Notes: generated from the sequence alone by a model not told the origin. A stretch of DNA of 32,000 nt from Candidatus Saccharimonadota bacterium (GCA_002421785.1 DIRZ01000002.1:150001-182000); one strand, 5' to 3'; shown: positions 9,096 to 29,721, counted from the first letter of the stretch. Program-made: numbers and translations.

Positions 9096-9120
9096 TTGTA
9101 ATCTGTACTATAATCAGTTC

Positions 9121-10044: not shown

Positions 10045-10049
10045 TTCAC

Positions 10050-10078
10050 TAGACTTTACCTCTGTTACGCGGTATGTT
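10050..10078 (+). promoter_or_regulatory. conserved promoter-like motif TAGACT-N17-TATGTT (site 2, recombinase 1)
   Basis: CTAGACTTtacctctgttacGCGGTATGTTGTTGCTTGC. The -10-like box ends 10 nt before ATG 10089, implying a near-leaderless mRNA. Confidence 0.45.
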
Positions 10079-10088
10079 GTTGCTTGCA

Positions 10089-11378: not shown

Positions 11379-11385
11379 CAGACGA

Positions 11386-12339: not shown

Positions 12340-12363
12340 ATAGAATATCTTATCACTGGTCAA

Positions 12364-12600: not shown

Positions 12601-12615
12601 ATATCGAACAGAGAA

Positions 12616-13284: not shown

Positions 13285-13322
13285 ACATTTACATTATAGA
13301 TATAGATGCTACAAATGAGACA

Positions 13323-15095: not shown

Positions 15096-15142
15096 TTATT
15101 CTATTAGTATACCGTGTGACAGGCATGTAATTACAGCATAAG

Positions 15143-15667
15143 CTATATAGATGAGACTAAGTGCACGTTTTCGCAAATCACCTGGTCTCCTATGGTGTAT
15201 ACAAAGAAACTGATATTGAGTTTTGACTCTGGATTATCTTCAAAGTATTCGTTAATAGCTTCAAATGCTAAAGCCGCCGCTTCCTTTTTCGGGTAGCGAT
15301 GTATTCCTGCTGAGAGCAGTGGAAATGCAATAGATACAATGTTGAGCTCCTCGGCTCTACGGAGCGACTCCCAGTAACAGCTTTTGAGAATGTCGGCTTC
15401 ATTTCCATGATGATCGCCATAGATAGGGGTTGCAGTATGAACTATGTATTTAGCTGATAATCTAAAGCCTGGAGTCACTACCGCATCGCCGAACGCACAG
15501 TAATTAATCTCATCACATACTTTAGTAAGCTCTTCATCTCCGGCCGCTTCAAAGATTTGCCCGCACAATCCACCACCACCCTTAAGTGCAATATTCGCAG
15601 GATTTACGATAGCATCACCGTCAAAATCTAATATGTCTCCTTGAATGATTTTTATATGCTGATTCAT
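15143..15667 (-). CDS. stand-alone macrodomain protein (MacroD/YmdB-like ADP-ribose hydrolase)
   Basis: IIQGDILDFDGDAIVNPANIALKGGGGLCGQIFEAAG and IVHTATPIY are classic macrodomain motifs. Confidence 0.85.
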   Translation of the reverse strand: MNQHIKIIQGDILDFDGDAIVNPANIALKGGGGLCGQIFEAAGDEELTKVCDEINYCAFGDAVVTPGFRLSAKYIVHTATPIYGDHHGNEADILKSCYWESLRRAEELNIVSIAFPLLSAGIHRYPKKEAAALAFEAINEYFEDNPESKLNISFFVYTIGDQVICENVHLVSSI

Positions 15668-15701
15668 AGTGCTTGCTACCTTAGCTTACATTCACAAAAT
15701 G

Positions 15702-16895: not shown

Positions 16896-16933
16896 GAATC
16901 CCTCTTGTTAGAAATTCGGACATAATCCGGAGC

Positions 16934-17018
16934 TCTAAGGAGGGGGATTCGAACCCCCGGAGGCTTTCACCTCGCCTGCCCCTCAGACAGGTGCCATCGA
17001 CCACTCGGCCACCCTTCC
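16934..17018 (-). tRNA. type-II tRNA-Leu(GAG) with mismatched top of the acceptor stem
   Basis: Minus strand: GGAAGGG TG GCC..GGC, anticodon arm CCTGT-CTGAGGG-GCAGG, long variable arm GAGG-TGAAAG-CCTC, T arm GGGGG-TTCGAAT-CCCCC, then TCCTTAG-A. Pairs 1:72 (G/G) and 2:71 (G/A) do not form. No encoded CCA. Confidence 0.65.
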
Positions 17019-17021
17019 TTC

Positions 17022-17136
17022 TGGTACCCAGTGCGAGATTCGAACTCGCACGCATTACTGCACGGGATTACTCAGCTCACGAACATGTTCCCGAGCTTAG
17101 GTAGTCCCGCGTGTCTACCAATTTCACCAACTGGGC
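17022..17136 (-). tRNA. type-II (Leu-like) tRNA gene with a ~30-nt hairpin-forming insertion in the anticodon loop; anticodon not assignable
   Basis: GCCCAGT TG GTG-AAATTGGTAGA-CAC G CGGGA [37 nt] TCCCG TGCAGTAATGCGT GCGAG-TTCGAAT-CTCGC ACTGGGT A CCA. Acceptor, D, variable and T arms are canonical. A TACAAT -10 box lies at 17145-17150, 8 nt upstream of the 5' end. Confidence 0.6.
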
Positions 17137-17174
17137 ATATATTTATTGTACCGCTTGTTGTAGCCATTAAAAAG

Positions 17175-18245
17175 TCAGCTGACCCCCTCTACGAATCGCA
17201 ACCGCCTAGCACCCAATGCGCTCTGCTCAGACTCGGTATACTTCGCAATCATGGTATTGATCGCCGTTCGTATAACAAAATCATTTGTACGCATGATATC
17301 GGTCTTATCAACACTATAGATTGGGGCGCTCGTTAGGTCGTCGTTGAGCAACAGCTTCCGCACTGCCTTTTGCGCCGCCGCGCTATTAGTGATGGTCACA
17401 TTCGGCAAAATCCTAATGACTTGGTCGATGCGAGATAGCACGGAGGGCCCCGCCACCAAGCACTGCATATCATTTCCGACACTCGCCGCAAAGTACGCGA
17501 GATCGACTACGACCTGCCGCCACTCCGAGTCCGGTCCGATGGTTTGCAAATCCATGGCGACCGCCTTTATATCCGGATGTCTTTGCAAAAATCGCAAGTG
17601 TTCGTCTATATCCTTTCGCCCGTGCCAAGTAATATGAGGGATTGCCGGTAATCCTGCTTCGATCATTTCTTTGTACATGATCATGCTCTTCTTTTGATTG
17701 ATTAACCTTTCGGCGTGCGGTTGATTCGCCCAGACCGAGTAGTCAGGGGGCACAATTGCATGTAGATCCAGTTTCTTGAACTCATCGATAATCCGGTGCC
17801 GCTCCGCAGCGGGCCATGCACGTTCGAGCAATGCATCATTTGCAAAACCCAACAGGATAACTTTAGTTCTCTTAGAAACCCCAAGCCGCGCATGAATGTC
17901 GGTGGCGACTTGCAATCGCTTAGCTGAAACAACGTCACTCAAACTTACAGCGACATATTTAGGAGTATATTCCCTGAATAGCTTGCCGCTGCCGTTAGGG
18001 ATAGTCGGAACATATCGCGGGAGACTGGGGTTGATCGGATTAGTAATTGCTATATCATCAAAATCAACACCGTTCACCTCGGCTAGTCGAAGAGCAAAGT
18101 CGTCAGAATCCTCCCCAATAAGGTCATACCCACGAGCGTTAATTCCTGCGGCGTTACAATGAAAATCATCATCTTCAAGCCGGTCACCAAACGGGCAATC
18201 CGATCGTCGTACATCTGTAATTTTAAGCTGCTGATGGTGTTTCAT
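17175..18245 (-). CDS. hypothetical ~356-aa protein
   Basis: Long ORF, start ATG 18245 (MKHHQQL) or GTG 18260. I cannot place it in a family. A faint TIM-barrel / transglycosylase-like impression is too weak to call. Confidence 0.6.
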   Translation of the reverse strand: MKHHQQLKITDVRRSDCPFGDRLEDDDFHCNAAGINARGYDLIGEDSDDFALRLAEVNGVDFDDIAITNPINPSLPRYVPTIPNGSGKLFREYTPKYVAVSLSDVVSAKRLQVATDIHARLGVSKRTKVILLGFANDALLERAWPAAERHRIIDEFKKLDLHAIVPPDYSVWANQPHAERLINQKKSMIMYKEMIEAGLPAIPHITWHGRKDIDEHLRFLQRHPDIKAVAMDLQTIGPDSEWRQVVVDLAYFAASVGNDMQCLVAGPSVLSRIDQVIRILPNVTITNSAAAQKAVRKLLLNDDLTSAPIYSVDKTDIMRTNDFVIRTAINTMIAKYTESEQSALGARRLRFVEGVS

Positions 18246-18636
18246 GACCGAGCACCCCACCCTTCACGATGGCGCGCAGAGTGTTTGCGCCGACACTCTG
18301 CACTTGACCAGAGTACACGTAGCCCATGGCCATACATTCTAATAGACGGTCTTTTTGCTTACCTGCATATAACGAAAACCGCCTATTGCCGACAAAGACG
18401 CCGATCTCGCCAGCATCCACCCTTGCTAGAGTGACGGTGTCGCCACGTGTCGCCCTTGGGTCATTACCTGCAGCATAATTAACCTTCAGCTCCAAGGAGA
18501 AGAGACATGCGTTTACTGACGTCTCGCTGCCCGGTGTTTCATCGCCAAACGATGAAACACCACCACCATCGCCAGCGTCATGCCTAACCCTTGGTTTTTG
18601 GACATTCTTCTGTGTTGTTCCTGAACCCCGACCCAT
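18223..18636 (-). CDS. hypothetical 137-aa protein
   Basis: ORF begins 2 nt after the DUF2188 gene and overlaps the next gene's start. Gly/charged-rich N-terminus. Confidence 0.5.
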   Translation of the reverse strand: MGRGSGTTQKNVQKPRVRHDAGDGGGVSSFGDETPGSETSVNACLFSLELKVNYAAGNDPRATRGDTVTLARVDAGEIGVFVGNRRFSLYAGKQKDRLLECMAMGYVYSGQVQSVGANTLRAIVKGGVLGHETPSAA

Positions 18637-18638
18637 GG

Positions 18639-18887
18639 CTAGTGCCTCGTATCTTTTGGAGGATTAGGATCATTTGCTGGCGCAATTGTGTCACGATCAC
18701 GGATCTGTCCGTTGGGTCGATGGATTGTGATCTCACCACCTGCACCACCGTTGCGTGCCGACTGTTTTGCTGCAGATTCTGCTTCTGCTTGTGTGTTCGT
18801 TACACCCGATGCGCGATGCGCACCAGGAAGTTTGTATTGCCATTGACCGTCCGGTCGCCGAGTTATGTGATAGTTGCGTTGAGTCAT
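18639..18887 (-). CDS. DUF2188-like small protein
   Basis: YHITRRPDGQWQYKLPGAHRASGVTNTQAEAESAAKQSA..GEITIHRPNGQIRDRDT matches the DUF2188 pattern as I remember it. Confidence 0.65.
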   Translation of the reverse strand: MTQRNYHITRRPDGQWQYKLPGAHRASGVTNTQAEAESAAKQSARNGGAGGEITIHRPNGQIRDRDTIAPANDPNPPKDTRH

Positions 18888-19006
18888 ACTAACCCCTTTC
18901 TAACGCTTATTTTTTAAACGTGACCTTCGTTCCCCTCGTCACATACAGCTAATCAATCCTTTTTGTGTTGAACAACTGCTACATTATTAGGATATTCCTT
19001 TTTCTC

Positions 19007-19042
19007 TTGCAAGTCAACATAAATAGGATTATAATATCCTAT
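19007..19042 (+). promoter_or_regulatory. sigma70-type promoter TTGCAA-N17-TATAAT with inverted repeat ATAGGAT/ATCCTAT bracketing the -10 box
   Basis: -35 at 19007-19012 and -10 at 19030-19035. Repeat arms at 19023-19029 and 19036-19042. A third TAGGATAT copy lies at 18988-18995. RBS AAGGAAAGGA precedes ATG 19061. Confidence 0.6.
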
Positions 19043-19060
19043 ATAAGGAAAGGAACAGAT

Positions 19061-19402
19061 ATGGAAGTAACCAAGTATGTAGGTGAAAAAATTAAAGAGT
19101 TCCGTACATCATACGGTGGAGGAAAGGGATTATCGCAAGAAGAATTAGGAGAGAAACTGAAAATTGCACCAAATACGGTGTCACGCTGGGAAAACGCTAC
19201 TTATAAACCCAAGTTAGTGGACCTGGACAAGCTCGCCAATTTCTTCAAGGTGCCAATTTCGGCATTCTTCCCTGCGGGCGAAGCATCAGCACCGCTAGAG
19301 GGTCTTATGCGCGCAGCCGAAGGCCTCGCCCAAGATGATATTGATGCACTCACGCAATTTGCCCAGATTAAAAGCGCACAAAATCAACTAAAGAAAAAGT
19401 AG
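19061..19402 (+). CDS. XRE-family HTH transcriptional regulator
   Basis: GLSQEELGEKLKIAPNTVSRWENATYKPKLVDLDKLANFF is a typical Cro/C1-type HTH. I chose ATG 19061 (good RBS) over the track start at 18965. Confidence 0.85.
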   Translation: MEVTKYVGEKIKEFRTSYGGGKGLSQEELGEKLKIAPNTVSRWENATYKPKLVDLDKLANFFKVPISAFFPAGEASAPLEGLMRAAEGLAQDDIDALTQFAQIKSAQNQLKKK

Positions 19403-19408
19403 ATTGAC

Positions 19409-20053
19409 ATGGAGGATCGTACCGAATATTACCGAAAAATGACCGATCTGGCACAAGAACAGCGAAGTCTCTTCGGGATACAAGGTGCAAAAATCAGTCG
19501 AACCGATTTTCGTAAGATCTACAAACACTACGGGATAGAACTTAGCCAGTGGCCGTTGCCAAACATGAGTGGCAAGCCACTCAAGAAGCTTCGTGGTGTA
19601 TACTTTCCTGACCTTCATGGCAAGCCGTCCGTTCTGGCGGCACGACTTCCTGAAGAACCGTATATCTTTACCCTCGCTCATGAGCTAAAGCACCACCTTA
19701 TGGATCGAGACTCCGCCGGAGCATTCTGCCTCTCCGAAGTAAGGGATGAGGTAAAGGAGATTGGCGCAGAGGTCTTCGCTGCAGAGTTCATATACCCTAC
19801 GAAGTTGTTTTTCGATGATCTCAATAAGCTCGGAGTAACAAAGGGCCAATGCACAGCTCGAGACTTGGTTGTGCTGAAACACCAAACGAACACCAGTCTG
19901 AGCTATGCATCGTTAGCAAAACGCGCAACTCGCACCAAATGTGCTACCGAACCTTTACCGACTTCAGGGTGGAAAAAAATTGAAATCCAAATTTACGGTG
20001 AGCCAGATTATGTACGCATTCAGCGGTACCGAAAGTTACAGAAAAGCCATTGA
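19409..20053 (+). CDS. ImmA/IrrE-family zinc metallopeptidase
   Basis: HEXXH motif in FTLAHELKHHLMD. Lies immediately downstream of the XRE gene, the classic ImmR/ImmA arrangement. Confidence 0.8.
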   Translation: MEDRTEYYRKMTDLAQEQRSLFGIQGAKISRTDFRKIYKHYGIELSQWPLPNMSGKPLKKLRGVYFPDLHGKPSVLAARLPEEPYIFTLAHELKHHLMDRDSAGAFCLSEVRDEVKEIGAEVFAAEFIYPTKLFFDDLNKLGVTKGQCTARDLVVLKHQTNTSLSYASLAKRATRTKCATEPLPTSGWKKIEIQIYGEPDYVRIQRYRKLQKSH

Positions 20054-20121
20054 TTATGTTATCCTATTATGTTTAAATTATTTTAAGGTCGTTACCGCAT
20101 GTAACTAGCTAAGACGTGAAG

Positions 20122-20190
20122 AAACGTTTTGCGTGCCGATCAAATAGCAACAATGCTGTTTGACTGACATACAAAACGTTTTTTGTTTTG
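20122..20190 (+). terminator. long hairpin (10-bp arms AAACGTTTTG / CAAAACGTTT, 40-nt loop) followed by a T-rich run
   Basis: Arms at 20122-20131 and 20172-20181, followed by ttttgttttg. Lies between the ImmA gene and ParB-methylase 2. May be a terminator or a regulatory structure. Confidence 0.35.
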
Positions 20191-20224
20191 TCGCATACAG
20201 CTCCAAAGAAAGGAGTGTCTTGTC

Positions 20225-21562
20225 ATGCCGAAAGCCAAACAAGACCTACAAATACAAACCGTAAAAATTAGCGATCTAAACCCAGCGCCGTACAATCCAC
20301 GCAAGTGGAGTGAGGAAGCAATCGCACAACTGACCGATAGTGTCCGACAGTTCGGTATGGTCGATCCACTACTTGTCAACGGCGCCGAGGGTCGCCGAAA
20401 CATTGTTATCGGCGGCCATTTCCGCCTCAAAGTAGCAAAAGATCTCGGCATTACCGAGTTACCTGTCGTATATGTAGCTATCCCAGAGCTTGAGCGAGAG
20501 AAAGAGCTTAACCTTCGTCTCAATAAAAATCTTGGCGAATGGGATATTGATCTACTAAAGGAGTTTGACGAAGCCATTCTTTCCGATATCGGCTTCAGTA
20601 GTGAAGACCTGGATGGTGTATTTGAGGTCGATGATACACCCGAAAACTTTGACCTCAAGAAAGAGCTTGAGAGGCTTGATATTCAAGTAGAAGCAAAGAA
20701 GGGTGATATTTACCAGCTTGGTAATTCTCGCCTCATGGTCGGTGATAGCACTATACCCGAGGACTTTACTAAGCTAATGAATGGTGAACTAGGAGACCTT
20801 TGCCTATGCGATCCTCCGTATCGTCTCAGCTATATGAAAGGTGGTATTCGACATGGCGAGCCTGTGACGGGCTTCGGAGCGAAACGTAACCGTCGCTACC
20901 TCGAAACTGAGGAGCTATCAGACGACTTTACTACTAAATGGATGCAAAATGTCGCTAACCACGCAAAGGAAGATTTCAGTATCATTGTGTACGAGGCGTG
21001 GCATAACCTCCGGGAGATTTGGTCATGCCTCGAGGCGCACTGGAAGGTAAAAAATATGCTTGTTTGGCACTTGCCTAACCGTCACCAAGGATTTGCTGCA
21101 AAGTATAAGTTCTTCAGTAAATACGATATTGCCATGGTCGGTGCTAGCGGTACGGTTGAATACAACCACGGAGAGGAACCAGATGGCTTACAAGAAGAGT
21201 ATGAGGCTGCCCTTTATGCTATATCTGGCAAACCCCAATGGGAGGGATATAAAAAGGGTAAGGACAAGAGGTTTATGCCAACTGACCATATCGAGTTTAA
21301 TGCCGATGACGAAAAACACTCAGGCCAAAACATTATATTCGGAACCAAACCGATCGAGATCCTACTCCCCTACATAAAGGTACTAACTAGGCGCGGAGAT
21401 CTAGTTGTAGAACCTTTTTGTGGTAGCGGCTCGACTCTAATTGCTGCGACTAAATTGCATCGTCGATGCTACGTCATGGAGAAGTCTCCAGTATATGCAG
21501 AAGTTGCCATGAAGCGATGGGAAAAATTAACTGGCCAGAAGAGGGTGAAAATAGATGAATAA
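20225..21562 (+). CDS. ParB-like N-terminal domain fused to a beta-class DNA methyltransferase (copy 2)
   Basis: RBS AAAGGAG lies 8 nt before ATG 20225, so I reject the track start at 20183. Motifs NPRKWSE..FGMVDPLLV..IVIGGHFRLK, canonical motif IV LCDPPY, motif I VVEPFCGSGSTLIA. Confidence 0.88.
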   Translation: MPKAKQDLQIQTVKISDLNPAPYNPRKWSEEAIAQLTDSVRQFGMVDPLLVNGAEGRRNIVIGGHFRLKVAKDLGITELPVVYVAIPELEREKELNLRLNKNLGEWDIDLLKEFDEAILSDIGFSSEDLDGVFEVDDTPENFDLKKELERLDIQVEAKKGDIYQLGNSRLMVGDSTIPEDFTKLMNGELGDLCLCDPPYRLSYMKGGIRHGEPVTGFGAKRNRRYLETEELSDDFTTKWMQNVANHAKEDFSIIVYEAWHNLREIWSCLEAHWKVKNMLVWHLPNRHQGFAAKYKFFSKYDIAMVGASGTVEYNHGEEPDGLQEEYEAALYAISGKPQWEGYKKGKDKRFMPTDHIEFNADDEKHSGQNIIFGTKPIEILLPYIKVLTRRGDLVVEPFCGSGSTLIAATKLHRRCYVMEKSPVYAEVAMKRWEKLTGQKRVKIDE

Positions 21563-22007
21563 GAAATGGAAAGGCAAACGTGCTCATATCCTTAGAGAAT
21601 TTCAGGAAAACCCGCTTATAACAAGAGCATGTCAAAAGATAGGAATTGCTCGCTCCACTTACTACAGGTGGTATAACTACGACGCAGACTTTCGACAAGA
21701 TGTAGACCATGCGCAGAATAGAGGACGCGAAAAACTTACCGACTTCGCTGAGTCAAAACTGCTCGAGAATATCAGGAATAACCAGTACGCATCAATTGCG
21801 TACTGGTTGAGTCACAATACAACGCGCTACCGAACATATCCAAAAAATGTTTACACTGACGAAATAAGACAACTTCGTATGGCAGAAAAAGCACTTGAGG
21901 AGATAGGAGGATTGCTCGCCAAAGACGCAGGCTATGAATCTTTGAAGCGCCTTGTTGATAATGAAATAAATAGAATAAATCACGAGTCACCCTTGAGGAA
22001 TAGCTGA
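21555..22007 (+). CDS. small HTH protein resembling a phage small terminase or regulator (copy 2)
   Basis: ILREFQENPLITRACQKIGIARSTYYRWYNYDADFRQDVDHAQ is homologous to the 8127-8741 product. Overlaps the methylase end by 8 nt. Confidence 0.7.
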   Translation: MNKKWKGKRAHILREFQENPLITRACQKIGIARSTYYRWYNYDADFRQDVDHAQNRGREKLTDFAESKLLENIRNNQYASIAYWLSHNTTRYRTYPKNVYTDEIRQLRMAEKALEEIGGLLAKDAGYESLKRLVDNEINRINHESPLRNS

Positions 22008-22015
22008 TATAATAA

Positions 22016-22156
22016 GACTGTCTAGGATTCAAACAATTAGTTAACGCAAAGTGTTTTGCGTAGTTATGCCGTAAAATGGGCAGCTACGTAAAAAAGAATA
22101 GGCATAACTGCTTGTTTGGGTCCTAGACAGTCCAGCGTGGCTGTCCTTTTTATTTT
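22016..22156 (+). ncRNA. structured intergenic element: 12-bp closing helix, two internal hairpins, and an overlapping terminator-like hairpin
   Basis: P1 GACTGTCTAGGA (22016-22027) pairs with TCCTAGACAGTC (22121-22132). P2 ACGCAAA/TTTGCGT (22044-22050 / 22055-22061). P3 AGTTATGCC/GGCATAACT (22062-22070 / 22101-22109). GACAG/CTGTC (22126-22130 / 22141-22145) followed by TTTTTATTTT. Confidence 0.45.
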
Positions 22157-22206
22157 ATATGGACTTCTTCGCTGAGTTGCGACATTACTTTGGTGAAGGA
22201 GAAGAT

Positions 22207-22797
22207 ATGCAAGAAAATAATCAACCGAATCAAGTGCACAATCATCAGCTACAACCTGTGAAGAAAAGAGGTTGGTATAAAACCTGGTGGGGAATCCTAC
22301 TAATTATACTAGGTGCCATTACTGCGATACCTGTAATAATGCTATTCATCGTTGTAGGGATCGTAATGTTTACACAAGACAACGATACAAATCCGTCTAC
22401 CAAACAGAAAGATGAAACTAGTTTGAGCCAGTCCGTTGACGAATCAAAGATTCCATATGAAGGAGTTGAGATATGGAAAATTGGTGATAACGGCCTCGGC
22501 ACAACCATCGTTATTGATCCTAAATACGACAATAGCGAGTCACTCAAGCGGCTCGGATCGGAGCTCAATAATGAAAACCAGTCGAGACAATTTGCGATGA
22601 ATTACATCTACACAGACAAGACTTCAGCCTTATATAGAAAAGAAAGCTTCTGCTCACCTGGACAGCCTGCATCAATTCGTCAGCACAAAAAAAGCTGGGC
22701 AGCTCTCTACCAAAAAGATAATTCAGGCGCAAGAATGACGATATTTACAGATCGCTCTTGCGACCCGAATGCCGCTTCAGAAACTATCGAATATTAA
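22207..22797 (+). CDS. single-pass membrane protein (variable slot of module 2)
   Basis: Strong RBS GAAGGAG precedes ATG 22207. TM segment WWGILLIILGAITAIPVIMLFIVVGIVMF followed by a soluble domain. No motif. Confidence 0.65.
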   Translation: MQENNQPNQVHNHQLQPVKKRGWYKTWWGILLIILGAITAIPVIMLFIVVGIVMFTQDNDTNPSTKQKDETSLSQSVDESKIPYEGVEIWKIGDNGLGTTIVIDPKYDNSESLKRLGSELNNENQSRQFAMNYIYTDKTSALYRKESFCSPGQPASIRQHKKSWAALYQKDNSGARMTIFTDRSCDPNAASETIEY

Positions 22798-22800
22798 GGC

Positions 22801-22828
22801 TAGACTTTGTAAACCGTTGCGGTATTGT
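22801..22828 (+). promoter_or_regulatory. conserved promoter-like motif TAGACT-N16-TATTGT (site 3, recombinase 2)
   Basis: CTAGACTTtgtaaaccgttGCGGTATTGTTGTCCTTGC. ATG 22842 lies 13 nt after the -10-like box. Confidence 0.45.
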
Positions 22829-22841
22829 TGTCCTTGCAGTC

Positions 22842-24125
22842 ATGCTGGACAACAATACTCAATCACTAAAATATTGCCTGTACGCTCGGAAAAGCTCCGA
22901 GAGCGACGAGCGTCAGGCAATGAGTATTGATTCACAATTAGCGGAAATGAGATCCCTCGCTGAAAACGAGGGATTAGATGTTGTGTGCGAACTACAAGAG
23001 AGCCATTCAGCAAAAGACTCTGGAAAGCGTCCTGTATACAACAAGATGTTAGCCGGTATCGCTAATGGCGAATATAACGCGATTCTCACCTGGGCACCAG
23101 ATCGTTTGAGTCGAAACGCCGGAGACCTTGGGTCTGTTGTCGACCTTATGGACCAGCATAAGCTACTCCACATACGTACATATTCCCAAACATTCACCAA
23201 TAGTCCAAATGAGAAATTCCTCCTCATGATTCTCTGCTCACAAGCCAAGCTTGAAAACGATAACAAAAGCATCAATGTAAAACGCGGCATACGCACAAAA
23301 TGCGAGATGGGCTGGCGACCTGGTGTTGCTCCACTTGGCTACATGAACCGAGCATTCGGAGGTATCAACGATATCATTATCGATCCCGAACGTGCCGACC
23401 TCATCAGAGAAGCATTCCATAAGGCAGGATACGAACGATGGAGCGGGCGCAGAATTAAAGCTTGGCTCGACGAAAAAGGATTTACTAATCGATCAGGAAA
23501 ACCGATAAGTATCAGTCAAGTGCTAGTGATACTAAACACCCCCTTTTACTACGGAAGGTTCCAGTATCCAGAGGCACCTGATGCACCGTGGTATGATGGC
23601 GCACATAAACCACTCATCTCCAAAGAATTATTTGACCAGGTACAAGAGACTCGTGGCGTTAACAAGGGTGTATGGAGGTCAAAAACCTTTGCCTTTCGTG
23701 GTTTGCTCAAATGCGGACAATGCGGTGCTGACATTACCGCACAGGATAAATTCAAAACACTAAAAAAGTCCGGTGAGGTAAAGCGATTCGTCTACTATAA
23801 CTGTACGAGACGGAAAGATCCGAATTGCACTGAGAAATATATAAACGAAGACAAGCTGTGCGAACTTTTGAAAGACTTTATTGAAACACATCATTCCGAA
23901 ATCAAGATCGGTGACAAATTGCGTGCAAAGGTAGATAAGCATATGTATGTCACCAACACTTTGCTCACCCATTACAATATCGATCGGGAGTTGAGTGACC
24001 CATTCGTAGAATACGCGAGATATGTGCTCATAAGTGGGACTGAGAACGAAAGAACAAGTTTAGCAGCTGGAATAGAGACAACCATCCAGATCAAGCATGG
24101 CATTCTCGAATTTTGGCCTAAGTAA
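22842..24125 (+). CDS. large serine recombinase (copy 2)
   Basis: MLDNNTQSLKYCLYARKSSESDERQAMSIDSQ.., LTWAPDRLSRN, zinc ribbon CGQCGAD..YYNCTRR..C. The N-terminal ~150 aa are nearly identical to copy 1 at protein level, while the DNA differs at many synonymous sites. Confidence 0.9.
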   Translation: MLDNNTQSLKYCLYARKSSESDERQAMSIDSQLAEMRSLAENEGLDVVCELQESHSAKDSGKRPVYNKMLAGIANGEYNAILTWAPDRLSRNAGDLGSVVDLMDQHKLLHIRTYSQTFTNSPNEKFLLMILCSQAKLENDNKSINVKRGIRTKCEMGWRPGVAPLGYMNRAFGGINDIIIDPERADLIREAFHKAGYERWSGRRIKAWLDEKGFTNRSGKPISISQVLVILNTPFYYGRFQYPEAPDAPWYDGAHKPLISKELFDQVQETRGVNKGVWRSKTFAFRGLLKCGQCGADITAQDKFKTLKKSGEVKRFVYYNCTRRKDPNCTEKYINEDKLCELLKDFIETHHSEIKIGDKLRAKVDKHMYVTNTLLTHYNIDRELSDPFVEYARYVLISGTENERTSLAAGIETTIQIKHGILEFWPK

Positions 24126-24693
24126 GATGAGCTGCGGCTAAAAGTACGGCAATAAGCGCGTCCGTACCTTTATCTGCAAGCCATTTAACAATATTTACTA
24201 TTCTTGGCTTATCTTTCGTTTCTTTTTTAAGCTCATCAAGCAGTTCCTGTACTTTCTCCTGTACCTCATGGTCATACTGAGAGAGATTTATAGTCTGAGT
24301 GATTTGCTGAACTTGCTGCTGACTAATTGTAAGGTTTAAGATAACTTTATCTTGCAAAGGTTTGACTGAACTCTCATTTGTCGAGCCAGGATCATATCCC
24401 CATGTTTCAAGTTCTTCTATTAAGGATTTTATAAACGCCTCTGAATTATCTAGCCCTTGATGATATGCTCGAGCATATCTTGCGCTATTGTCCTGCCCAC
24501 CAATAGTCATACCTGGCGAGAACCTTACGCGATCTGCTTTCTGTTTATATGAGTCACCCATACGTTCACAGGTTGACTTAACCGTATTCCACCAAGTGGT
24601 AAAAGTTGGCTCCCTATAGTCATTAAACTTTCTGAGTTCAGGTAACTGTTTGAGTTTCGCATTGAAAAAATCTATAAGCTTTTCAGTATTCAT
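24118..24693 (-). CDS. hypothetical 191-aa protein (convergent cargo of module 2)
   Basis: RBS GGAG precedes ATG 24693. Its stop overlaps the recombinase stop by 8 nt. No motif. Confidence 0.6.
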   Translation of the reverse strand: MNTEKLIDFFNAKLKQLPELRKFNDYREPTFTTWWNTVKSTCERMGDSYKQKADRVRFSPGMTIGGQDNSARYARAYHQGLDNSEAFIKSLIEELETWGYDPGSTNESSVKPLQDKVILNLTISQQQVQQITQTINLSQYDHEVQEKVQELLDELKKETKDKPRIVNIVKWLADKGTDALIAVLLAAAHLT

Positions 24694-24704
24694 ACTGACT
24701 CCAG

Positions 24705-24732
24705 TATATATCCTCGCCTACAGATAGGTCTA
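24705..24732 (-). promoter_or_regulatory. promoter-like TAGACC-N16-TATATA upstream of the 191-aa gene
   Basis: Minus strand reads CCTAGACCtatctgtaggcgaggaTATATAC. Same CTAGAC-type -35 as the three plus-strand sites. Confidence 0.4.
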
Positions 24733-24807
24733 GGAATCGGGTCGGCTTTTTGCCTGCTTGCTTTCCTGGAGCTTGACAGGTCGGTGTTAGAACTAAATTA
24801 CAGAGGT

Positions 24808-24840
24808 GAAAATGAAAGAACCGCCCTTTTGGACGGTTCC
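24808..24840 (-). terminator. terminator-like hairpin in module copy 2
   Basis: Minus strand reads GAACCGTCC-AAAA-GGGCGGTTC followed by TTTCATTTTC. Confidence 0.45.
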
Positions 24841-24942
24841 AACATTTTGTACCTTTTGAGCTCGACTCAAAATTCTTGCTTAAGTAAGGAGTTAAGGAGA
24901 GGCCGGTTACGGAACTCGGTCATCTATTTTAACTGCTTGCTC

Positions 24943-24977
24943 TGGCTCCGGCGACTGGATTCGAACCAGGCGCCTAT
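24943..24977 (-). pseudogene. displaced 3' fragment of a tRNA-Asn-like gene (variable loop, T arm, acceptor 3' strand, G73, CCA)
   Basis: Minus strand reads AGGCGCCTGG-TTCGAAT-CCAGT-CGCCGGA-G-CCA. The matching 5' strand TCCGGCG is absent upstream. Similar but not identical to the 3' half of the intact gene at 29007-29047. Confidence 0.75.
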
Positions 24978-25049
24978 ACCACCATTTTCCTGGTTCACCA
25001 TACTATAGCTTACATCTGCCATTAATCATAATAATCTGTGTATTACTGG

Positions 25050-25778
25050 CTAAAACAGGCTCAGCCAGTAATCTGACCATCGATAGAATAGCAACATAAA
25101 GATAACAGTATAAGTTATAACGATAAGCTCATACTTGTAGCTGAACAGTTTATTCAGTTTTTCGCCGAGGTTTATGTATTTGTGCCGTATGCAGTATGCG
25201 GTCACCATCCATAGCAGCGCGAACGTCACCAGCCACACCAGCATACAGTACAAGCATAATTTTCCGATTACAAAGACACCCTGGTAAAACAGCCACGTAC
25301 AGAATCCGGCGCCAAAGACGATGCCGCCGAGGAGCGTGCGCCACAAGGCCCTATGCAGTTTTACCGCCCCGGCAAGAATCGTCATGCCGGCTGCGAAAAC
25401 CGCGGTATAACCGAATATACCTATGAACGAATTGGCAAAGCCGAAAGCACTCGCCTGCGGGCTGGCGATGATGGGCGAACAGGCCACGATCGGACTCAAG
25501 CTGCAGCTTGGATCGTGAGCCGGCTGAGTCAGTATCTCTATCTTTTCGATGGATAGGATGATCGCCGCACTCACCCCAATGACAGCGAGAACCGTCATCC
25601 ATCGTGCCAATAAGATCTCCGGTTTCAGGTTCTGCCCGCGCTGGATAATCGCCGTCAGTAACACAAGAGCTACGACGGCGAGATATACATACTCTACTTT
25701 GCTACGAGCCACAAATACGGCCACAAACAAATAGACTATCGGCAAGAGAACAAAGTATTTACGTAGTAAAGTAATCAT
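25050..25778 (-). CDS. vitamin K epoxide reductase (VKOR) family membrane protein
   Basis: Polytopic membrane protein with loop cysteines CSLSPIVAC and the CxxC motif GKLCLYCMLVW. ATG 25778 lies 1 nt after the upstream stop. The track start at 25799 is an alternative. Confidence 0.8.
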   Translation of the reverse strand: MITLLRKYFVLLPIVYLFVAVFVARSKVEYVYLAVVALVLLTAIIQRGQNLKPEILLARWMTVLAVIGVSAAIILSIEKIEILTQPAHDPSCSLSPIVACSPIIASPQASAFGFANSFIGIFGYTAVFAAGMTILAGAVKLHRALWRTLLGGIVFGAGFCTWLFYQGVFVIGKLCLYCMLVWLVTFALLWMVTAYCIRHKYINLGEKLNKLFSYKYELIVITYTVIFMLLFYRWSDYWLSLF

Positions 25779-25779
25779 C

Positions 25780-26067
25780 TTAGAAATCGAATAGATCACC
25801 CAAAAAGGACTCTTTGCGCTTTTTGCGAGGGTACCCTTGGTCGTAGTTCACCGGCCGGCCATGTTTATCGTATTGTGGTGGGTAGCCGGAGTTCTGATAC
25901 GGCTCCGGCGCAGGTGATGACGTGGTCTGAGAGACCGCCCCCCGCTCAATGATCTTATCCAGCTCACCTCGGTCCAACCAGACACCACGGCACTTGGGAC
26001 AATAATCTATCTCGACGCCTTGGCGGTCAGTCATTACCAGTTCAGTATTGTCTATGGGGCATTGCAT
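25780..26067 (-). CDS. zinc-ribbon (TFIIB-type zf, COG3809-like) protein
   Basis: MQCPIDNTELV..IDYCPKCRGVWLDRGELDKII is the typical family signature, followed by a Pro/Gly/Tyr-rich tail. Confidence 0.8.
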   Translation of the reverse strand: MQCPIDNTELVMTDRQGVEIDYCPKCRGVWLDRGELDKIIERGAVSQTTSSPAPEPYQNSGYPPQYDKHGRPVNYDQGYPRKKRKESFLGDLFDF

Positions 26068-26079
26068 ATGTCATCTCCT

Positions 26080-27990
26080 TTACTTATTCACTATAGCAAC
26101 TTCATTGGCTCCGGCATTAAACAGACGCAGGCCGTTGAGGACGACCAGGACAGCCATAACCGCGTCTGCCGCCACGGCCAAGCTTAGACCGATCACCCCG
26201 GCGATGCCGAGTACCAGGATAACACCCTTGACTATGATTGATCCGTAGACATTCTGACGGACAACCCTGAAAGTTTGCTGGCCGACATCCAGTAGGTATG
26301 GAATAGTGCCTATAGCGTCATTCATCAGTGTTACGTCCGCCGTTTCTATCGCTACGTCCGAGCCGCCACCCCCCATGGCGATACCCACATCCGCTCGAGC
26401 CAAGCTCGGCGCGTCGTTCACACCATCGCCCACCATGGCTACTCGCTGATACCGGGCTTGCAGCTTGTCGATAAGTTCTGCTTTTTGCTCAGGCAGCAGT
26501 GCTCCGTACGCCTCGCTGATACCGACTTTTTCCGCGATATAATTCGCTGCCCGCTGATTATCTCCGGTCAGCATCACCGGCGTGACCCGTAGCTTATTCA
26601 GCGCGTCTATGACACCCTTTGAATCGTTACGCAATTCGTCGGTGATACCTATGATACCGATGACCTTTTTGCCCTCACTGACAAGCACGGCCGTCATCCC
26701 CATGCCTTCCAGTCGTTCCACTTCCGGCAATACATGTTCGCACGTCTCGGCGCTAACGCCGATATGCTGAAGATTGCCGATAGCGTGCTCCTTGTCGCCG
26801 CAGACCATACAATTGGCGTTGCCGCCACGACCGGCTACGTTTTTGAACTTGTCCATTTTGTGCGGTTTAATGCCCTTTTGTTTGGCATAATCTTCTATCG
26901 CCTTAGCTAGCGGATGCGAAGAGAATTTTTCAATTCCCGCAGCATCTCCTATGACGTCCTCTTCCGTAGCGTCATGCAGCAGCACTACTTCAGCCACCAC
27001 AGGGGTTCCGACGGTCAGTGTCTTTGTCTTGTCGAAAGCGATTGCTCTGGTCTTGCTCAAGACTTCCAGGAAACGGCCTCCCTTGATGAGCACACCCCTA
27101 CGCGATGCACCGCCGATTGCCGCCGCCACGGCGACAGGCGCCGATACCACTAGCGCATCCGGACAAGCGAGCACCAGCAGGATAAGTGCTTTTGTAAACC
27201 AGTCGCTGAACGGTTCGCCGAAAAAGACCGGCGGCACGACAGCTACCAGCAGGGCCAGCCCGATCGCTGCCGGTATATAATAACTCGCAAACTTATCCAA
27301 AAATTCCTGCATCTCTGGCCTGGATTTTTGAGCCTCAGAAATTAATGTGACAATTTTTTGCAGCGTACTGTTAGCGGCGGTTTTGGTGACTTTTACCTCC
27401 AGATAGCCGCTCTGGTTTAAGGTACCGGCGTAGACGGCTTCACCTTTATATTTCTCTTTTGGCACGCTCTCGCCGGTAATAGTCGCCTCGTCGACCGATG
27501 ACTCGCCGTCGACTACCACGCCGTCCAGCGGCACCATGTCACCGGGACGGACTTTGACTATTTCACCTTCCTTGACTTTCTCGACCGGCACTTCACGGCC
27601 ATCTTGTAAGCGGGCGATTTTCGGCGCGGATTTGAGAAGCGCCGCCACGGCCTTTTGCGAGCGGGCTTCGCCGAATTCCTCGAAGGCTTCAGCCAGTGCA
27701 AAGAAGAACATCACGGCAGCAGCCTCGGCGAATTGGCCAAGGTACAGCGCGCCAAGTGCGGCAATCGTTACCAGCAGGCTGATGGATATTTTACGTTTCA
27801 ATAGTTTTCGGACAGCCGATATTGCAACAGGAGTACCTCCCGCAGCCAGCGACACCAGGTACAGTATTTCCGCCCCGGGCAACTTAAACAGGCTGCACGC
27901 CAAACCAGCAACAAAGCTGACGGCGGCAGTAGCGGTCAAAGCCTTGTTCATGCGGTTTGATTCGTTTTCTTCGGCATGGTTATCGCTCAT
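26080..27990 (-). CDS. P1B-type heavy-metal-translocating ATPase with atypical motifs and no N-terminal metal-binding domain
   Basis: TGES (ITGESVP), MLTGDN and MVGDGVNDAPSLA are present. The phosphorylation motif reads FDKTKTLT instead of DKTGT. The TM metal motif reads ACPDAL instead of CPC/CPH/SPC. Confidence 0.85.
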   Translation of the reverse strand: MSDNHAEENESNRMNKALTATAAVSFVAGLACSLFKLPGAEILYLVSLAAGGTPVAISAVRKLLKRKISISLLVTIAALGALYLGQFAEAAAVMFFFALAEAFEEFGEARSQKAVAALLKSAPKIARLQDGREVPVEKVKEGEIVKVRPGDMVPLDGVVVDGESSVDEATITGESVPKEKYKGEAVYAGTLNQSGYLEVKVTKTAANSTLQKIVTLISEAQKSRPEMQEFLDKFASYYIPAAIGLALLVAVVPPVFFGEPFSDWFTKALILLVLACPDALVVSAPVAVAAAIGGASRRGVLIKGGRFLEVLSKTRAIAFDKTKTLTVGTPVVAEVVLLHDATEEDVIGDAAGIEKFSSHPLAKAIEDYAKQKGIKPHKMDKFKNVAGRGGNANCMVCGDKEHAIGNLQHIGVSAETCEHVLPEVERLEGMGMTAVLVSEGKKVIGIIGITDELRNDSKGVIDALNKLRVTPVMLTGDNQRAANYIAEKVGISEAYGALLPEQKAELIDKLQARYQRVAMVGDGVNDAPSLARADVGIAMGGGGSDVAIETADVTLMNDAIGTIPYLLDVGQQTFRVVRQNVYGSIIVKGVILVLGIAGVIGLSLAVAADAVMAVLVVLNGLRLFNAGANEVAIVNK

Positions 27991-27994
27991 GAAA

Positions 27995-28279
27995 TTAGTT
28001 GCCTCCCCCTGTCAAAAACTGCAGCGGATTTGCGATAACCTGTTGCCACAGGGCATTAATGAAATCAAGTGCATAATTCCATAGTGATTTGATGATATTA
28101 CCGACACTTTGCCCAATCCCGCTATCGGCCTGTCCGAGCAAGGCGCCGATGACAGCTATGATGATCGAGCCAATTATCAAAAGTATAACAAGCAGTACAA
28201 ACCCGACGAGCAGAGCTGCTATAACCAGTTTTTTCTTATTTATACGGCTTAATTTATCAAATTTGTATCCGTGGCTCAT
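27995..28279 (-). CDS. 94-aa membrane protein
   Basis: One long hydrophobic segment (LVIAALLVGFVLLVILLIIGSIIIAVIGALL). Tightly spaced between the ArsR and ATPase genes. Confidence 0.55.
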   Translation of the reverse strand: MSHGYKFDKLSRINKKKLVIAALLVGFVLLVILLIIGSIIIAVIGALLGQADSGIGQSVGNIIKSLWNYALDFINALWQQVIANPLQFLTGGGN

Positions 28280-28296
28280 AAGTATACCTTTCTTTT

Positions 28297-28623
28297 TTAT
28301 TTATGTTCGCCGCTCTTGATGTGATCGGCTTGTGTAAACGCGTGTTCGATGAACTGAAGCACATGATCATTCTCAGCACTATAGAATATTTTCGTACCGG
28401 CACGTCTGACGCGCACCATGTGAGACATGCGTAGTTTTGCGAGATGCTGTGAGACTACAGCAGGTTTTACCCCTACGTCTTCTGCAAGCTCACCCACCGA
28501 ATGCTCACCGTGCAAGAGTGCCCATAATATTTTTAAGCGCGTCGGGTCGCTCAGCAGTTTAAATATCCCGGTAGCTATATCAAGGCGTGCATTTGATAAT
28601 TCTTTGCGTATATGCGCAGACAT
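28297..28623 (-). CDS. ArsR/SmtB-family metalloregulator
   Basis: LLSDPTRLKILWALLHGEHSVGELAEDVGVKPAVVSQHLAKLR is a winged-HTH signature. His/Asp/Glu-rich C-terminus (NDHVLQFIEHAFTQADH). I chose ATG 28623 because the predicted promoter lies inside the longer track ORF. Confidence 0.85.
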   Translation of the reverse strand: MSAHIRKELSNARLDIATGIFKLLSDPTRLKILWALLHGEHSVGELAEDVGVKPAVVSQHLAKLRMSHMVRVRRAGTKIFYSAENDHVLQFIEHAFTQADHIKSGEHK

Positions 28624-28629
28624 GCATAT

Positions 28630-28659
28630 ACTATAGCAAAATGCTCCTCTTATTCGCAA
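28630..28659 (-). promoter_or_regulatory. TTGCGA-N18-TATAGT promoter, giving a leaderless or near-leaderless arsR-like mRNA
   Basis: Minus strand reads TTGCGAataagaggagcattttgcTATAGTatatgcATG. Confidence 0.4.
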
Positions 28660-28740
28660 GGTTAGTATTGTCATTGGCACATCCTATCAGGACAGATGAG
28701 CAGAACTGAACCCTTATTAGGTACTAATAAGCGTGTAGTA

Positions 28741-29006
28741 CATCAGACATAAAAGTCCTGCTGAGTGTTTACCTGACTTAAATCAGGGACAGGTCTGGGG
28801 AACAGGTCCGAGTTTTGGCTGCCTGTTCCTTCAGGACGAGAGAGGCCGAGTTCGAACTGACTTACAGAGGTGCCTACGAAAGAACCGCCCTTTCGGACGG
28901 TTCCAACATTTTGTACTTTGTTATCAGCACATTGTTTCTTGGCTGAGTAAGGAGAGAAGTTACGGTCAGGTCTAGGACCTTGGTCTGCGCTTTTCTCTGC
29001 TTGCTC
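28741..29006 (-). repeat. tRNA-Asn-linked non-coding module, copy 3 (directly downstream of the intact tRNA-Asn)
   Basis: Begins right after the encoded CCA with GAGCAAGCAG. Contains the conserved hairpin and the blocks shared with copies 1 and 2. Confidence 0.8.
28877..28904 (-). terminator. terminator-like hairpin in module copy 3
   Basis: Minus strand reads GAACCGTCC-GAAA-GGGCGGTTC followed by TTTCGTAGG, a weak U-tract. Confidence 0.4.
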
Positions 29007-29315
29007 TGGCTCCGGCAGCTGGGCTCGAACCAGCGACCTAATCGTTACACATAACCACATGTTTTCACATATGTGTGGACTATCTCATCATCCATTTTCA
29101 GGATGCGGGGCGCTATTTGAAAGAGTATTGCTTGAGGACTCACTTTCTAGTCTCTGAACCTTCCTAGCGTTATAACCTCTAGCTAGGCTTGGCTGCGGAT
29201 TCCCGTATCACAATTGTGACGTAGGCTTCCCGCAATTCACCCCGTTGACACCATACAGTTACCTGTATGGGCTGCCTTTTGACAGCGATCCGCTCTACCA
29301 CTGAGCTATGCCGGA
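29007..29315 (-). tRNA. tRNA-Asn(GUU) interrupted by a group I intron (exon 1 29315-29282, exon 2 29047-29007)
   Basis: Joined exons: TCCGGCA TA GCTC-AGTGGTA-GAGC G GATCG-CTGT|TAA-CGATT AGGTC GCTGG-TTCGAGC-CCAGC TGCCGGA G CCA, 75 nt. The architecture closely parallels E. coli tRNA-Asn (U1-A72, G73, loop CUGUUAA). Confidence 0.85.
29048..29281 (-). ncRNA. group I intron (IC3-like, 234 nt) in the anticodon loop
   Basis: The 5' exon ends in U and the intron ends in G. P1: exon GCUGU pairs with intron GCAGC (29275-29271), with U.G at the splice site. P2 hairpin CCATACAG-GTAA-CTGTATGG. Core elements: P GAATTGCGGGAAG (29238-29226), Q GAATCCGCAGCC (29202-29191), R GGTTCAGAGACTAGA (29160-29146), S GAGATAGTCC (29086-29077). 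Confidence 0.85.
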
Positions 29316-29686: not shown

Positions 29687-29721
29687 ATCCTGATGGTATA
29701 GCACTGTGGTGTAACAGTCAA

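Follow-up and report, generated by a model that had tools for sequence, protein, structure and literature searches.

In SCCmec, the large serine recombinases CcrAB or CcrC integrate at the 3' end of rlmH/orfX. SCC composites consist of tandem units, which include recombinase-less pseudo-SCC units that can be moved in trans, carry resistance cargo, and show short direct repeats at their joints. By the standard view, tRNA genes are the targets of tyrosine integrases, and serine integrases are directed to protein genes or intergenic sites (PMC4383910); a 2026 provirus survey reported that RNA loci are preferred by tyrosine integrases (PMC13626063). In streptococci, accretion at the 3' ends of conserved genes has been described, and serine integrases insert inside protein genes and disrupt them (PMC5357655). 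Among the tycheposons of Prochlorococcus, 27 of 937 encode a large serine recombinase, for which the accessible text of the preprint gives no site detail (bioRxiv 10.1101/2020.12.28.424599). Use of a tRNA 3' end as an attachment site is unusual for large serine recombinases. No description of tRNA-targeting serine integrases in CPR bacteria was found in the literature that we searched, which was of limited coverage; large island databases may contain such cases unremarked.

We addressed the organization of a 32,000-nucleotide stretch of a Candidatus Saccharimonadota genome (the window; locus L085) by comparison with a set of about 130 related loci, numbered here with the prefix L. On the basis of sequence comparison, we proposed that the window holds a tandem array of integrative elements accreted behind the 3' end of a tRNA-Asn(GUU) gene, with a nearby large serine recombinase as the probable catalyst, a reading to which we assign a probability of roughly 75%; the array itself and the anatomy of its joints are held with high confidence. 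Along the minus strand, tRNA-Asn and a core copy are followed by a 4.06-kb metal-resistance cassette, a core, a 12.4-kb element with the recombinase LSR2, a core, and an element with the recombinase LSR1, which continues past the left window edge (table 1). To the left of module 1, no further junction was found within the window, and the far end of the array is out of view. Each unit has a conserved tRNA-proximal arm of ~220 bp and a distal sequence of ~24 bp that mimics the tRNA from the T loop to CCA. The region at 24720-24977 is the joint of the cassette distal arm with the proximal arm of the LSR2 element. Thus, the att-type junction that the original prediction placed here was borne out by comparison with relatives, and the intact gene, predicted to lie 4 kb away, was found 4064 bp from the tRNA fragment at this joint (fragment B).

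Table 1. Features of the tRNA-Asn array, with positions counted from the first nucleotide of the window
Feature	Position	Strand	Evidence or remark
tRNA-Asn(GUU) exon 1	29282..29315	-	same as 5' part of intronless tRNA-Asn called by ARAGORN in L082 and L004
Group I intron, tRNA-Asn anticodon loop	29048..29281	-	Rfam RF00028 at 29056-29291, 75.2 bits, E=1.5e-17
tRNA-Asn exon 2	29007..29047	-	same T arm and acceptor strand in cassette-free L082 and L004
Core copy at intact gene, GCCGGAGCCAGAGCAAGCAG, last 10 nt of tRNA plus 10 nt downstream; attL-type	28997..29016	-	identical to 24933-24952
Conserved module copy C, cassette P' arm	28784..28996	-	17-bp motifs 28969-28985, 28792-28808
Cargo of the 4.06-kb recombinase-less cassette: ArsR regulator, 94-aa membrane protein, P-type ATPase, Zn-ribbon protein, VKOR	25050..28680	-	Pfam
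Cassette distal (P) arm	24970..25045	-	motif shared with other cassette ends
Fragment B, tRNA-Asn-like T arm, acceptor 3' strand, G73 and CCA	24943..24969	-	moves with cassette (versus L082)
Core copy, internal junction, cassette end meets LSR2-element arm	24933..24952	-	versus L082
Conserved module copy B, LSR2-element P' arm	24720..24932	-	17-bp motifs 24905-24921, 24727-24743
LSR2 element, 12.4 kb, bounded by junctions A and B	12576..24942	.	
LSR2 (large serine recombinase, 427 aa from the start used by database homologues)	22842..24125	+	convergent with tRNA
Junction A, degraded tRNA-like putative half-site (LSR2-element distal arm) abutting GAGCCAGA	12576..12599	-	
Conserved module copy A, LSR1-element P' arm	12340..12575	-	17-bp motifs 12538-12554, 12358-12374
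LSR1 (large serine recombinase), next element of the array	10074..11378	+	72% identical to LSR2

The predicted conserved module proved to be real. Copies B and C are repeated in a register of 4064 bp, with 87% identity between 24786-24855 and 28850-28919 and 77% identity between 24911-24976 and 28975-29040, and a third copy with a degraded tRNA-like end is located at ~12340-12599. The 17-bp motif GACC-N3-KTCC-N3-ACC occurs twice in each arm, the two copies being 177-180 bp apart, and all six occurrences in the window (versus 0.23 expected) fall within the three modules; the paired motifs may bind an accessory protein. Module B additionally contains a terminator-like hairpin at 24817-24840 and a promoter-like region upstream of a 191-aa gene. 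In other genomes, each module has relatives behind a tRNA gene. For module C, identity to the arms that follow tRNA-Asn in L004 and L089 is 81-84%. Module B, together with the adjacent core and tRNA-like stretch, falls within a 98.6%-identical alignment with L082, where the copy lies directly behind an intact tRNA-Asn. Module A is 95.6% identical to L019 14449-14673, again directly behind an intact tRNA-Asn, and this identity stops 7-9 nt inside the tRNA. A further tRNA-like repeat at 2080-2100 lies within a methylase reading frame and was dismissed as a chance match.

A group I intron of 234 nt is inserted in the anticodon loop of the intact tRNA-Asn(GUU) gene; the U-G pair in P1 and the terminal G were used to set its splice borders. 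Because the intron splits the gene, ARAGORN missed it and reported only a tRNA-Leu. The intron lies outside the att site, and the T arm and acceptor strand in exon 2 are native host sequence and form the B half-site. In minus-strand order after module B, the LSR2 element encodes (Pfam, PHROGs) the 191-aa ORF, LSR2, a terS-like HTH protein, a ParB-N6-methylase, ImmA, XRE, DUF4417, two tRNA genes, a 397-aa Zn-ribbon protein, a macro domain protein, and 590-aa and 222-aa ORFs. On the LSR1 side, module A is followed by a 325-aa ORF, the likewise convergent LSR1, DUF4268, a terS-like protein, a ParB-methylase, and then DUF499, DUF3780 and DUF1156 genes. The 191-aa and 325-aa ORFs, each located between an LSR gene and its att site, are candidates for accessory factors. 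LSR2 matched the Pfam domains Resolvase, Recombinase and Zn_ribbon_recom; the resolvase-type catalytic domain PF00239 was detected in both recombinases (E=3.7e-20 for LSR2, E=4.6e-20 for LSR1), in each case with PF07508 and PF13408 C-terminal to it, and the catalytic-serine motif YARKSSESDERQ was invariant in 10 aligned LSR homologues. At least 8000 homologues of LSR2 were retrieved, and those with a source name were all from Saccharibacteria/Saccharimonadales. Exact-protein searches gave no match for a 112-aa HNH-like ORF or for a 455-aa LSR reading frame, and did match the 427-aa form. No tyrosine recombinase (Phage_integrase match) was found among the 30 window ORFs, in agreement with the earlier observation that serine recombinases are the only recombinases present.

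Fragment B, CTGGTTCGAATCCAGTCGCCGGAGCCA on the minus strand, comprises the T arm, the acceptor 3' strand, G73 and CCA, and is equivalent to the last 27 nt of tRNA-Asn. Its 5' half is absent, as had been predicted, and neither ARAGORN nor Rfam called a tRNA here; the lack of a tRNA match in the Rfam search of 24880-25060 (E up to 10) is not counter-evidence, as the stretch is too short. Clear tRNA identity begins at the T stem, at 24969. Thus, the assignment to an Asn-type tRNA 3' piece stood for the T arm, acceptor, G73 and CCA, but not for the variable loop at 24970-24977; these bases are part of a GGTGGTA.A motif that is kept in other cassette ends, and they are not demonstrably tRNA-derived. 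The pattern GGTTCGANNCCNNNNGCCGGAGCCA has exactly two matches in the window, at 24943-24967 and 29007-29031, versus none in 100 shuffles. The differences from the intact gene were reported correctly (acceptor CGCCGGA versus TGCCGGA, T loop TTCGAAT versus TTCGAGC). Fragment B is identical at 27 of 27 positions to the tRNA-Asn 3' ends of L009 and L090. The same match, the 77-87% likeness of the copies in the window and the 95.6% likeness of copy A to L019 agree with the earlier view that the fragment is a diverged homologue and not a fresh duplication.

The position of the exchange was addressed with relatives that lack the metal cassette, the comparison that had been suggested at the outset. 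In three metagenome contigs (L082, L083 and L084), the LSR is 99% identical to LSR2, the cassette is absent, and an intronless tRNA-Asn, with exons equal to those of the window, is followed directly by GAGCAAGCAG and module B, the 191-aa gene and the LSR. Compared with the L082 site, junction C of the window kept the left flank (the native T arm with TTCGAGC and acceptor with TGCCGGA) and junction B kept the right flank (TTAAAATAGATG); both differ from the L082 site only outside the 20-bp GCCGGAGCCAGAGCAAGCAG, which is present in both. As each junction shares one flank of the L082 site together with GCCGGAGCCAGAGCAAGCAG, the exchange is placed inside this 20-bp block, and hence the fragment with TTCGAAT and CGCCGGA belongs to the inserted 4064-bp unit. 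In addition, a metagenome pattern scan returned three tRNA-Asn alleles joined to one module-C-type arm (L089, L091 and L092). L089 and L091 differ at 10 tRNA positions, the last being position 65, and are identical over ~90 nt downstream; the third allele, in L092, differs at position 66. In L090 and L094, an intact tRNA-Asn with last 27 nt equal to fragment B is joined to a module-C-type arm, and the window junctions resemble the two products of a reciprocal exchange between an L090-like left half and an L082-like site. Copy A matches the L019 arm at 95.6% only from GGAGCCAGA onward, and the element-arm families diverge from +1 to +3 after CCA, which gives the right bound. Taken together, comparison maps the crossover to CCGGAGCCA(G), which corresponds to tRNA positions 67-76 plus one base and in which the exact crossover dinucleotide would lie. 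The stretch shared at the equivalent place in the tRNA-Gln clade is AGCCA(A)G. Serine integrases recombine attP and attB sites of ~40-50 bp through a crossover staggered by 2 bp. When 25 junctions were scanned for dyad symmetry, the palindrome of the T arm itself dominated the signal, and no clear centre or symmetric serine-integrase-like site was detected in them.

These results did not uphold two points of the original prediction. The crossover had been placed at the boundary of anticodon stem and variable loop; L082-L084 put it in GCCGGAGCCAGAGCAAGCAG, and L089, L091 and L092 put it 3' of position 66. The fragment had also been described as displaced from the host tRNA, which it is not, as the intact gene keeps its resident T arm when the cassette is absent, and fragment B travels with the cassette as its distal half-site. 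Our own early reading, with a crossover at the T stem and fragment B as a displaced 3' end, was dropped on the same grounds, first on L082 and then on L089, L091 and L092. We read fragment B as an element-borne sequence that would mimic the tRNA half of attB, and the tRNA-like stretch as a putative protein-binding half-site. Serine-integrase half-sites are ~22-27 bp long, as seen in the att sites of Bxb1, phiC31 and A118. The tRNA similarity ends near the variable loop at a distance of ~24 bp from the crossover, which is where a half-site of the expected length would end, and this point would not mark a crossover zone.

The ends of cassettes and elements in other genomes showed a common structure. 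On its 5' side, fragment B is preceded by sequence that could be aligned with the distal ends of cassettes lacking a recombinase, both behind tRNA-Asn (L005, L013, L018, L089 and L093) and in the tRNA-Gln clade (L040 and L081). These ends have in common GTAAGCTA, a hexamer of the -10 type, a small hairpin and GGTGGTA.A, after which comes a stretch that corresponds to the target tRNA, beginning at its T stem or T loop and ending at CCA. Depending on the target, this stretch is Asn-like or Gln-like. A more degenerate form, GTTCGTGACCTGTAYGGGGAGCCA, is present where elements with an LSR have their far ends (window junction A, L002, L096 and L100). In L002, L096 and L100, the distal arm of junction A, GTTCGTGACCTGTACGGGGAGCCA, was found again at the far ends of related elements, and the 397-aa gene was found again near such far ends. 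At all ends, the conserved DNA extends over ~22-27 bp, from GTTCGA (or CTGG) to the crossover; in L013, L040 and L030, the repeat equals 24-28 nt of the tRNA 3' end. Internal junctions were also observed in L005, L013, L040, L002, L006, L096 and L100, and arrays in which L006 and L015, or L100 and L101, share one contig. In L089, a cassette homologue with the same ends was present, and the cassette-junction-LSR layout was repeated at 74% nucleotide identity.

Among the alternatives, the one that survives best accepts a site-specific array and proposes that the cassette was swapped by homologous recombination or natural transformation through the tRNA and the modules, without recombinase action at junction B. 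The repeats of ~260 bp are 77-87% identical and the joint falls in their longest identical stretch, 20 bp, as a homology-driven deletion predicts; moreover, the cassette-plus-LSR composite is conserved as one block in L089, and in L004 the cassette genes adjoin the LSR without an internal junction. However, RecA makes poor use of an identity of 20 bp set in flanks that are 80% identical, and the ~24-nt tRNA-matched cassette ends switch with the target (Asn, Gln), which homologous recombination leaves unexplained and which points to selection on a recombination site. We consider this explanation unlikely, and we retained the large serine recombinase as the probable catalyst of the exchange.

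The association of the recombinase with tRNA genes was quantified in 80 genome loci obtained from an LSR-alignment scan of a genome collection, out of 567 or more. ARAGORN detected only 3 tRNAs in 573 kb upstream of the LSR in these loci, versus 60 convergent tRNAs and 6 on the other strand in 550 kb downstream. The first downstream tRNA was convergent with the LSR in 52 of the 80 loci, and in 44 of the 57 with at least 3 kb available downstream; for the other 13, some cases are explained by arrays or intron-containing genes (L006, L064). The convergent first tRNAs were Gln (27), Asn (17), Ser (5) and Met (3), and their identity tracked similarity to LSR2, with Asn at 68% or more, Met at 62-63%, and mostly Gln or Ser at 50-60%. 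The same LSR-tRNA pattern was observed in IMG/VR viral contigs, where the tRNA is often located at the contig end. L030 represents a complete element of 9.3 kb, with tRNA-Gln on one side and, on the other, a 24-bp copy of the tRNA 3' end, behind which an unrelated terminator is located. It contains the LSR, a DsbA-like protein, a CDF transporter, T5orf172, a ParB-methylase, a terS-like protein and DUF4268, with a 2-hydroxyacid dehydrogenase gene outside; among its 10 larger ORFs scanned, no tyrosine recombinase was detected, and the LSR was the only recombinase found. Furthermore, the window genome and L082 share the LSR2 element at 98.6-99.7% identity, but the proteins encoded past the tRNA show only 53% and 31% identity, which indicates a recent transfer and insertion of this element at the same tRNA.

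These data bear on a second alternative, in which the locus is a classical tRNA island whose tyrosine integrase has since been lost, the crossover took place at the T stem or variable loop, and the fragment is the displaced host 3' end. An intact tDNA with a direct 3' fragment is the signature of tyrosine-integrase islands (PMC4383910), and repeats spanning 24-28 nt of the tRNA 3' end, as in L013, L040 and L030, fit it as well. Against this, no tyrosine recombinase is present among the window ORFs or those scanned in the delimited L030, the resident T arm is still at the intact gene where the cassette is lacking, and one arm is found on different tRNA alleles from position 66 or 67 onward. The motif before the fragment is kept in the cassette ends of other genomes, which makes the fragment element-owned, and the LSR-tRNA linkage was seen in 52/80 loci. 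The lost tyrosine integrase that had been offered as one possible explanation conflicts with the joint position, with L030 and with the linkage statistics, and we regard it as very improbable. The other possibility then raised, a serine-recombinase family that uses a tRNA-derived site, fits the comparative data on related loci, and the use of tRNA 3' ends as attachment sites by large serine recombinases is strongly supported by the sequences compared.

It is also conceivable that the cassette end encodes a small expressed tRNA-like RNA and owes its likeness to RNA function and not to recombinase binding. Hexamers resembling -35 and -10 elements lie upstream of several copies (TTGACA-16-TAnnnT, L013, L040), and in the small hairpin, 2 of the 4 base pairs show compensatory changes in a set of 8 sequences, a covariation that is weak. 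Nevertheless, the 5' acceptor strand is absent, and the T-stem 5' strand is not kept in L018, L081 and the LSR-element-type arms, whereas the DNA GTTCGA...GCCA is kept; an RNA function thus appears to have very little chance of being the explanation. A local duplication or rearrangement of the tRNA-Asn 3' region without mobile elements, which the presence of three direct copies within 17 kb might suggest, is excluded for practical purposes, as the copies are closer to other genomes than to each other (A and L019, 95.6%; fragment B and L009/L090, 27/27) and the same junction architecture occurs in unrelated genomes.

We proposed the following mechanism for the serine-recombinase array. The LSR would recombine an element site, composed of a tRNA-like half, the CCA core and the conserved arm, with the tRNA 3' end, in a conservative and site-specific reaction within the terminal CCGGAGCCA(G) of the tRNA. 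The tRNA body would never be replaced; the downstream flank alone would change, and the element arm would bring a new terminator (24817-24840). The most likely catalyst would be the large serine recombinase whose gene lies ~0.8 kb away from the joint, and on the cassette this enzyme would act in trans. The predicted circular (attP) joint is TTCGAATCCAGTCGCCGGAGCCAGAGCAAGCAGAGAAAAGCG, and the predicted empty site is TTCGAGCCCAGCTGCCGGAGCCAGAGCAAGCAGTTAAAATAG. One metagenome pattern scan for the excised circular (attP) form returned only integrated forms, and the candidate circular contig from IMG/VR (L096 and L144) has no terminal repeat, L096 not being circular. To our knowledge, characterised serine integrases recombine only attP with attB, so repeated insertion at an occupied site needs a hybrid site that is attB-like. 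It is plausible that the hybrid site remains attB-like, since the arms resemble each other. The two element arms resemble the halves of the occupied site, the hybrid site at the tRNA would thus stay usable, and more units, including cassettes without a recombinase, may insert or leave. In its general form, this model would describe a large clade of compact (~425 aa) serine integrases across Patescibacteria/CPR, specialised on the tRNA acceptor-CCA end (Asn, Gln, Met or Ser by subclade), in which tRNA-mimicking half-sites and a competent hybrid site allow whole elements and recombinase-less cassettes, with cargo such as metal resistance or Fic, to accumulate behind one tRNA as in integrons or SCC; we give this generalisation even odds.

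The clade-specific linkage in 52 of 80 loci and the joint at the CCA end indicate a serine-integrase family that breaks the tRNA rule, in a phylum with few known mobile-element mechanisms, and the pattern explains the gain and loss of cargo such as the metal-efflux operon at one hotspot in the ultra-small genomes of Saccharibacteria. If true, this would be the first systematic targeting of tRNA genes by serine integrases and would provide natural integrases with a highly conserved tRNA attB. Serine integrases are favoured tools for genome engineering, and integrases with an attB of ~40 bp in a conserved tRNA could serve as ready-made landing-site systems, including in Saccharibacteria.

Compared with known systems, the array resembles Islander-type islands in the intact tDNA with a direct partial 3' copy, the clade-specific tRNA and the tandem arrays (PMC4383910). 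The tRNA gene at 29007-29315 and the fragment at 24943-24969 lie on the same strand, 4064 bp apart, and L030 is bracketed likewise over 9.3 kb. Unlike those islands, it carries a serine recombinase, and the 30 window ORFs and 10 L030 ORFs include no tyrosine integrase; the crossover at the CCA end means that the gene body needs no restoring, and the partial copy is element-borne. In Islander-type islands, the gene receives its 3' part from attP, and the partial copy is the original host end that was displaced, which is not the arrangement seen in L082 or in L089, L091 and L092. The tycheposons similarly include a minority with a large serine recombinase, but nearly all of them use tyrosine recombinases, in another phylum and with other core genes (here ParB-methylase and DUF4268) (bioRxiv 10.1101/2020.12.28.424599). 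In integrons, the tyrosine recombinase IntI acts with an attI site, and the promoterless cassettes are bounded by attC hairpins; here, no tyrosine recombinase was found in the window ORFs and the cassette ends are tRNA-like putative half-sites. Accretion of streptococcal CIME, ICE and IME units (ICESt1/St3) also places recombinase-less att-flanked units, mobilisable in cis or in trans, in tandem with an autonomous element, but there the integrases are tyrosine recombinases that act at tRNA or ribosomal-protein genes. In functional terms, the nearest analogue is SCCmec, in which a serine recombinase likewise acts at the 3' end of a conserved gene that is not inactivated, with tandem recombinase-less units and resistance cargo; as in SCC composites, the window has several junctions (three), a recombinase-less cassette, and presence or absence of that cassette among 99%-identical elements. 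Leaving Ccr homology aside, the array differs from SCCmec in that the target is tRNA-Asn and not rlmH, each element has one recombinase of ~427 aa and no CcrA/CcrB pair, the arms carry a putative tRNA-mimicking half-site and a 220-bp module with paired 17-bp motifs, and the hosts are Patescibacteria.

Six copies of a 17-bp motif (GACC-N3-KTCC-N3-ACC) were found in the window, against 0.23 expected. All six lay in the three conserved modules, the tRNA-proximal arms of the stacked elements and of the metal-resistance cassette; each module carried two copies, spaced 177-180 bp apart and flanking its terminator hairpin. The proximal copy was also present behind occupied tRNA-Asn and tRNA-Gln sites at other loci. 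The motif may serve as a binding site for an accessory protein.

Features of the elements, the cassette and the tRNA-Asn region (window coordinates unless a related locus or contig, L plus number, is named)
Feature	Location	Strand	Remarks
Element core regions	6791-11378; 20183-24125; L030 7014-11269		
DUF1156 methylase-like gene, DUF3780 and DUF499 (1037 aa)	1-6412	-	distal side of the LSR1 module
397-aa multi-zinc-ribbon protein	15702-16895 (-); L009 550-1740; L100 13592-14746; L041; L043; L039		
tRNA-Leu(GAG)	16934-17018		neighbour of the class II tRNA
Class II tRNA	17025-17136	-	Rfam, 42.6 bits
Cassette distal arms	24970-25045 (-); L013 12884-12991; L040 11406-11498; L089 4690-4760		
Group I intron, tRNA-Asn(GUU) anticodon loop	29048-29281	-	RF00028, 75 bits
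Second intron-bearing tRNA-Asn	L064 4489-4723		adjoins a distant LSR; 108.8 bits
112-aa Cys-rich ORF	29366-29704	-	directly upstream of the intron-containing tRNA-Asn
17-bp motif copies	12358-12374; 12538-12554; 24727-24743; 24905-24921; 28792-28808; 28969-28985	-	

At the other end of the cassette, promoter-like hexamers (TTGACA-16-TAnnnT) were observed in the distal arms of L013 and L040, with a weaker version in the window, and a 4-bp hairpin showed compensatory changes at two of its four pairs among eight sequences. A putative transcript from this arm would run outward across the att site. In L004 (CP011211.1, a complete Saccharibacteria genome), the LSR stop codon is followed immediately by homologues of the metal-resistance genes (11330-14184), and these in turn by the module and tRNA-Asn; this interval lacks both an internal junction and VKOR. 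It appears that the cassette either was fused with the element in L004 or was born from such an element.

The group I intron interrupts the tRNA-Asn(GUU) of the window after U35. The alleles of L004 and L082, the latter carrying an LSR 99% identical to LSR2, are intronless, with exons identical to those of the window. Another related contig, L001, terminates at the exact border of exon 1 and the intron, which suggests that the intron is polymorphic within the sample of that contig. The Cys-rich ORF appeared HNH-like by eye, and its sole Pfam match was a zinc-ribbon below threshold (E=0.0099); L082 lacks this ORF, which could be a homing-endonuclease remnant.

As for the cargo of the elements, the DUF1156, DUF3780 and DUF499 genes look like a defence set. 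At the corresponding position L019 carries what we take, on our reading of its translation rather than from a database match, to be a type I restriction HsdM-like gene, and the defence cargo may be variable among LSR elements. The multi-zinc-ribbon protein is a recurrent feature close to the distal ends of LSR elements, with 32-84% identity in eight loci, and 430 bp separate its gene from the junction in L100. Both the class II tRNA and the tRNA-Leu(GAG) also fall within the limits drawn for the LSR2 element. The anticodon loop of the former, which ARAGORN did not call in its scan of the window, holds an insert of ~30-35 nt containing a 30-nt palindrome, CTCAGCTCACGAACATGTTCCCGAGCTTAG.

The conserved element core consists of a fusion of a ParB N-domain with an N6-N4 DNA methylase, a terS-like HTH protein and the LSR. 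Module 1 and L030 have DUF4268 in addition, and module 2 lacks it. Neither capsid nor other structural genes were seen in the core regions of the window or in L030. With this ParB-methylase/terS-like/LSR core and no structural genes seen, the LSR elements are similar to phage satellites.
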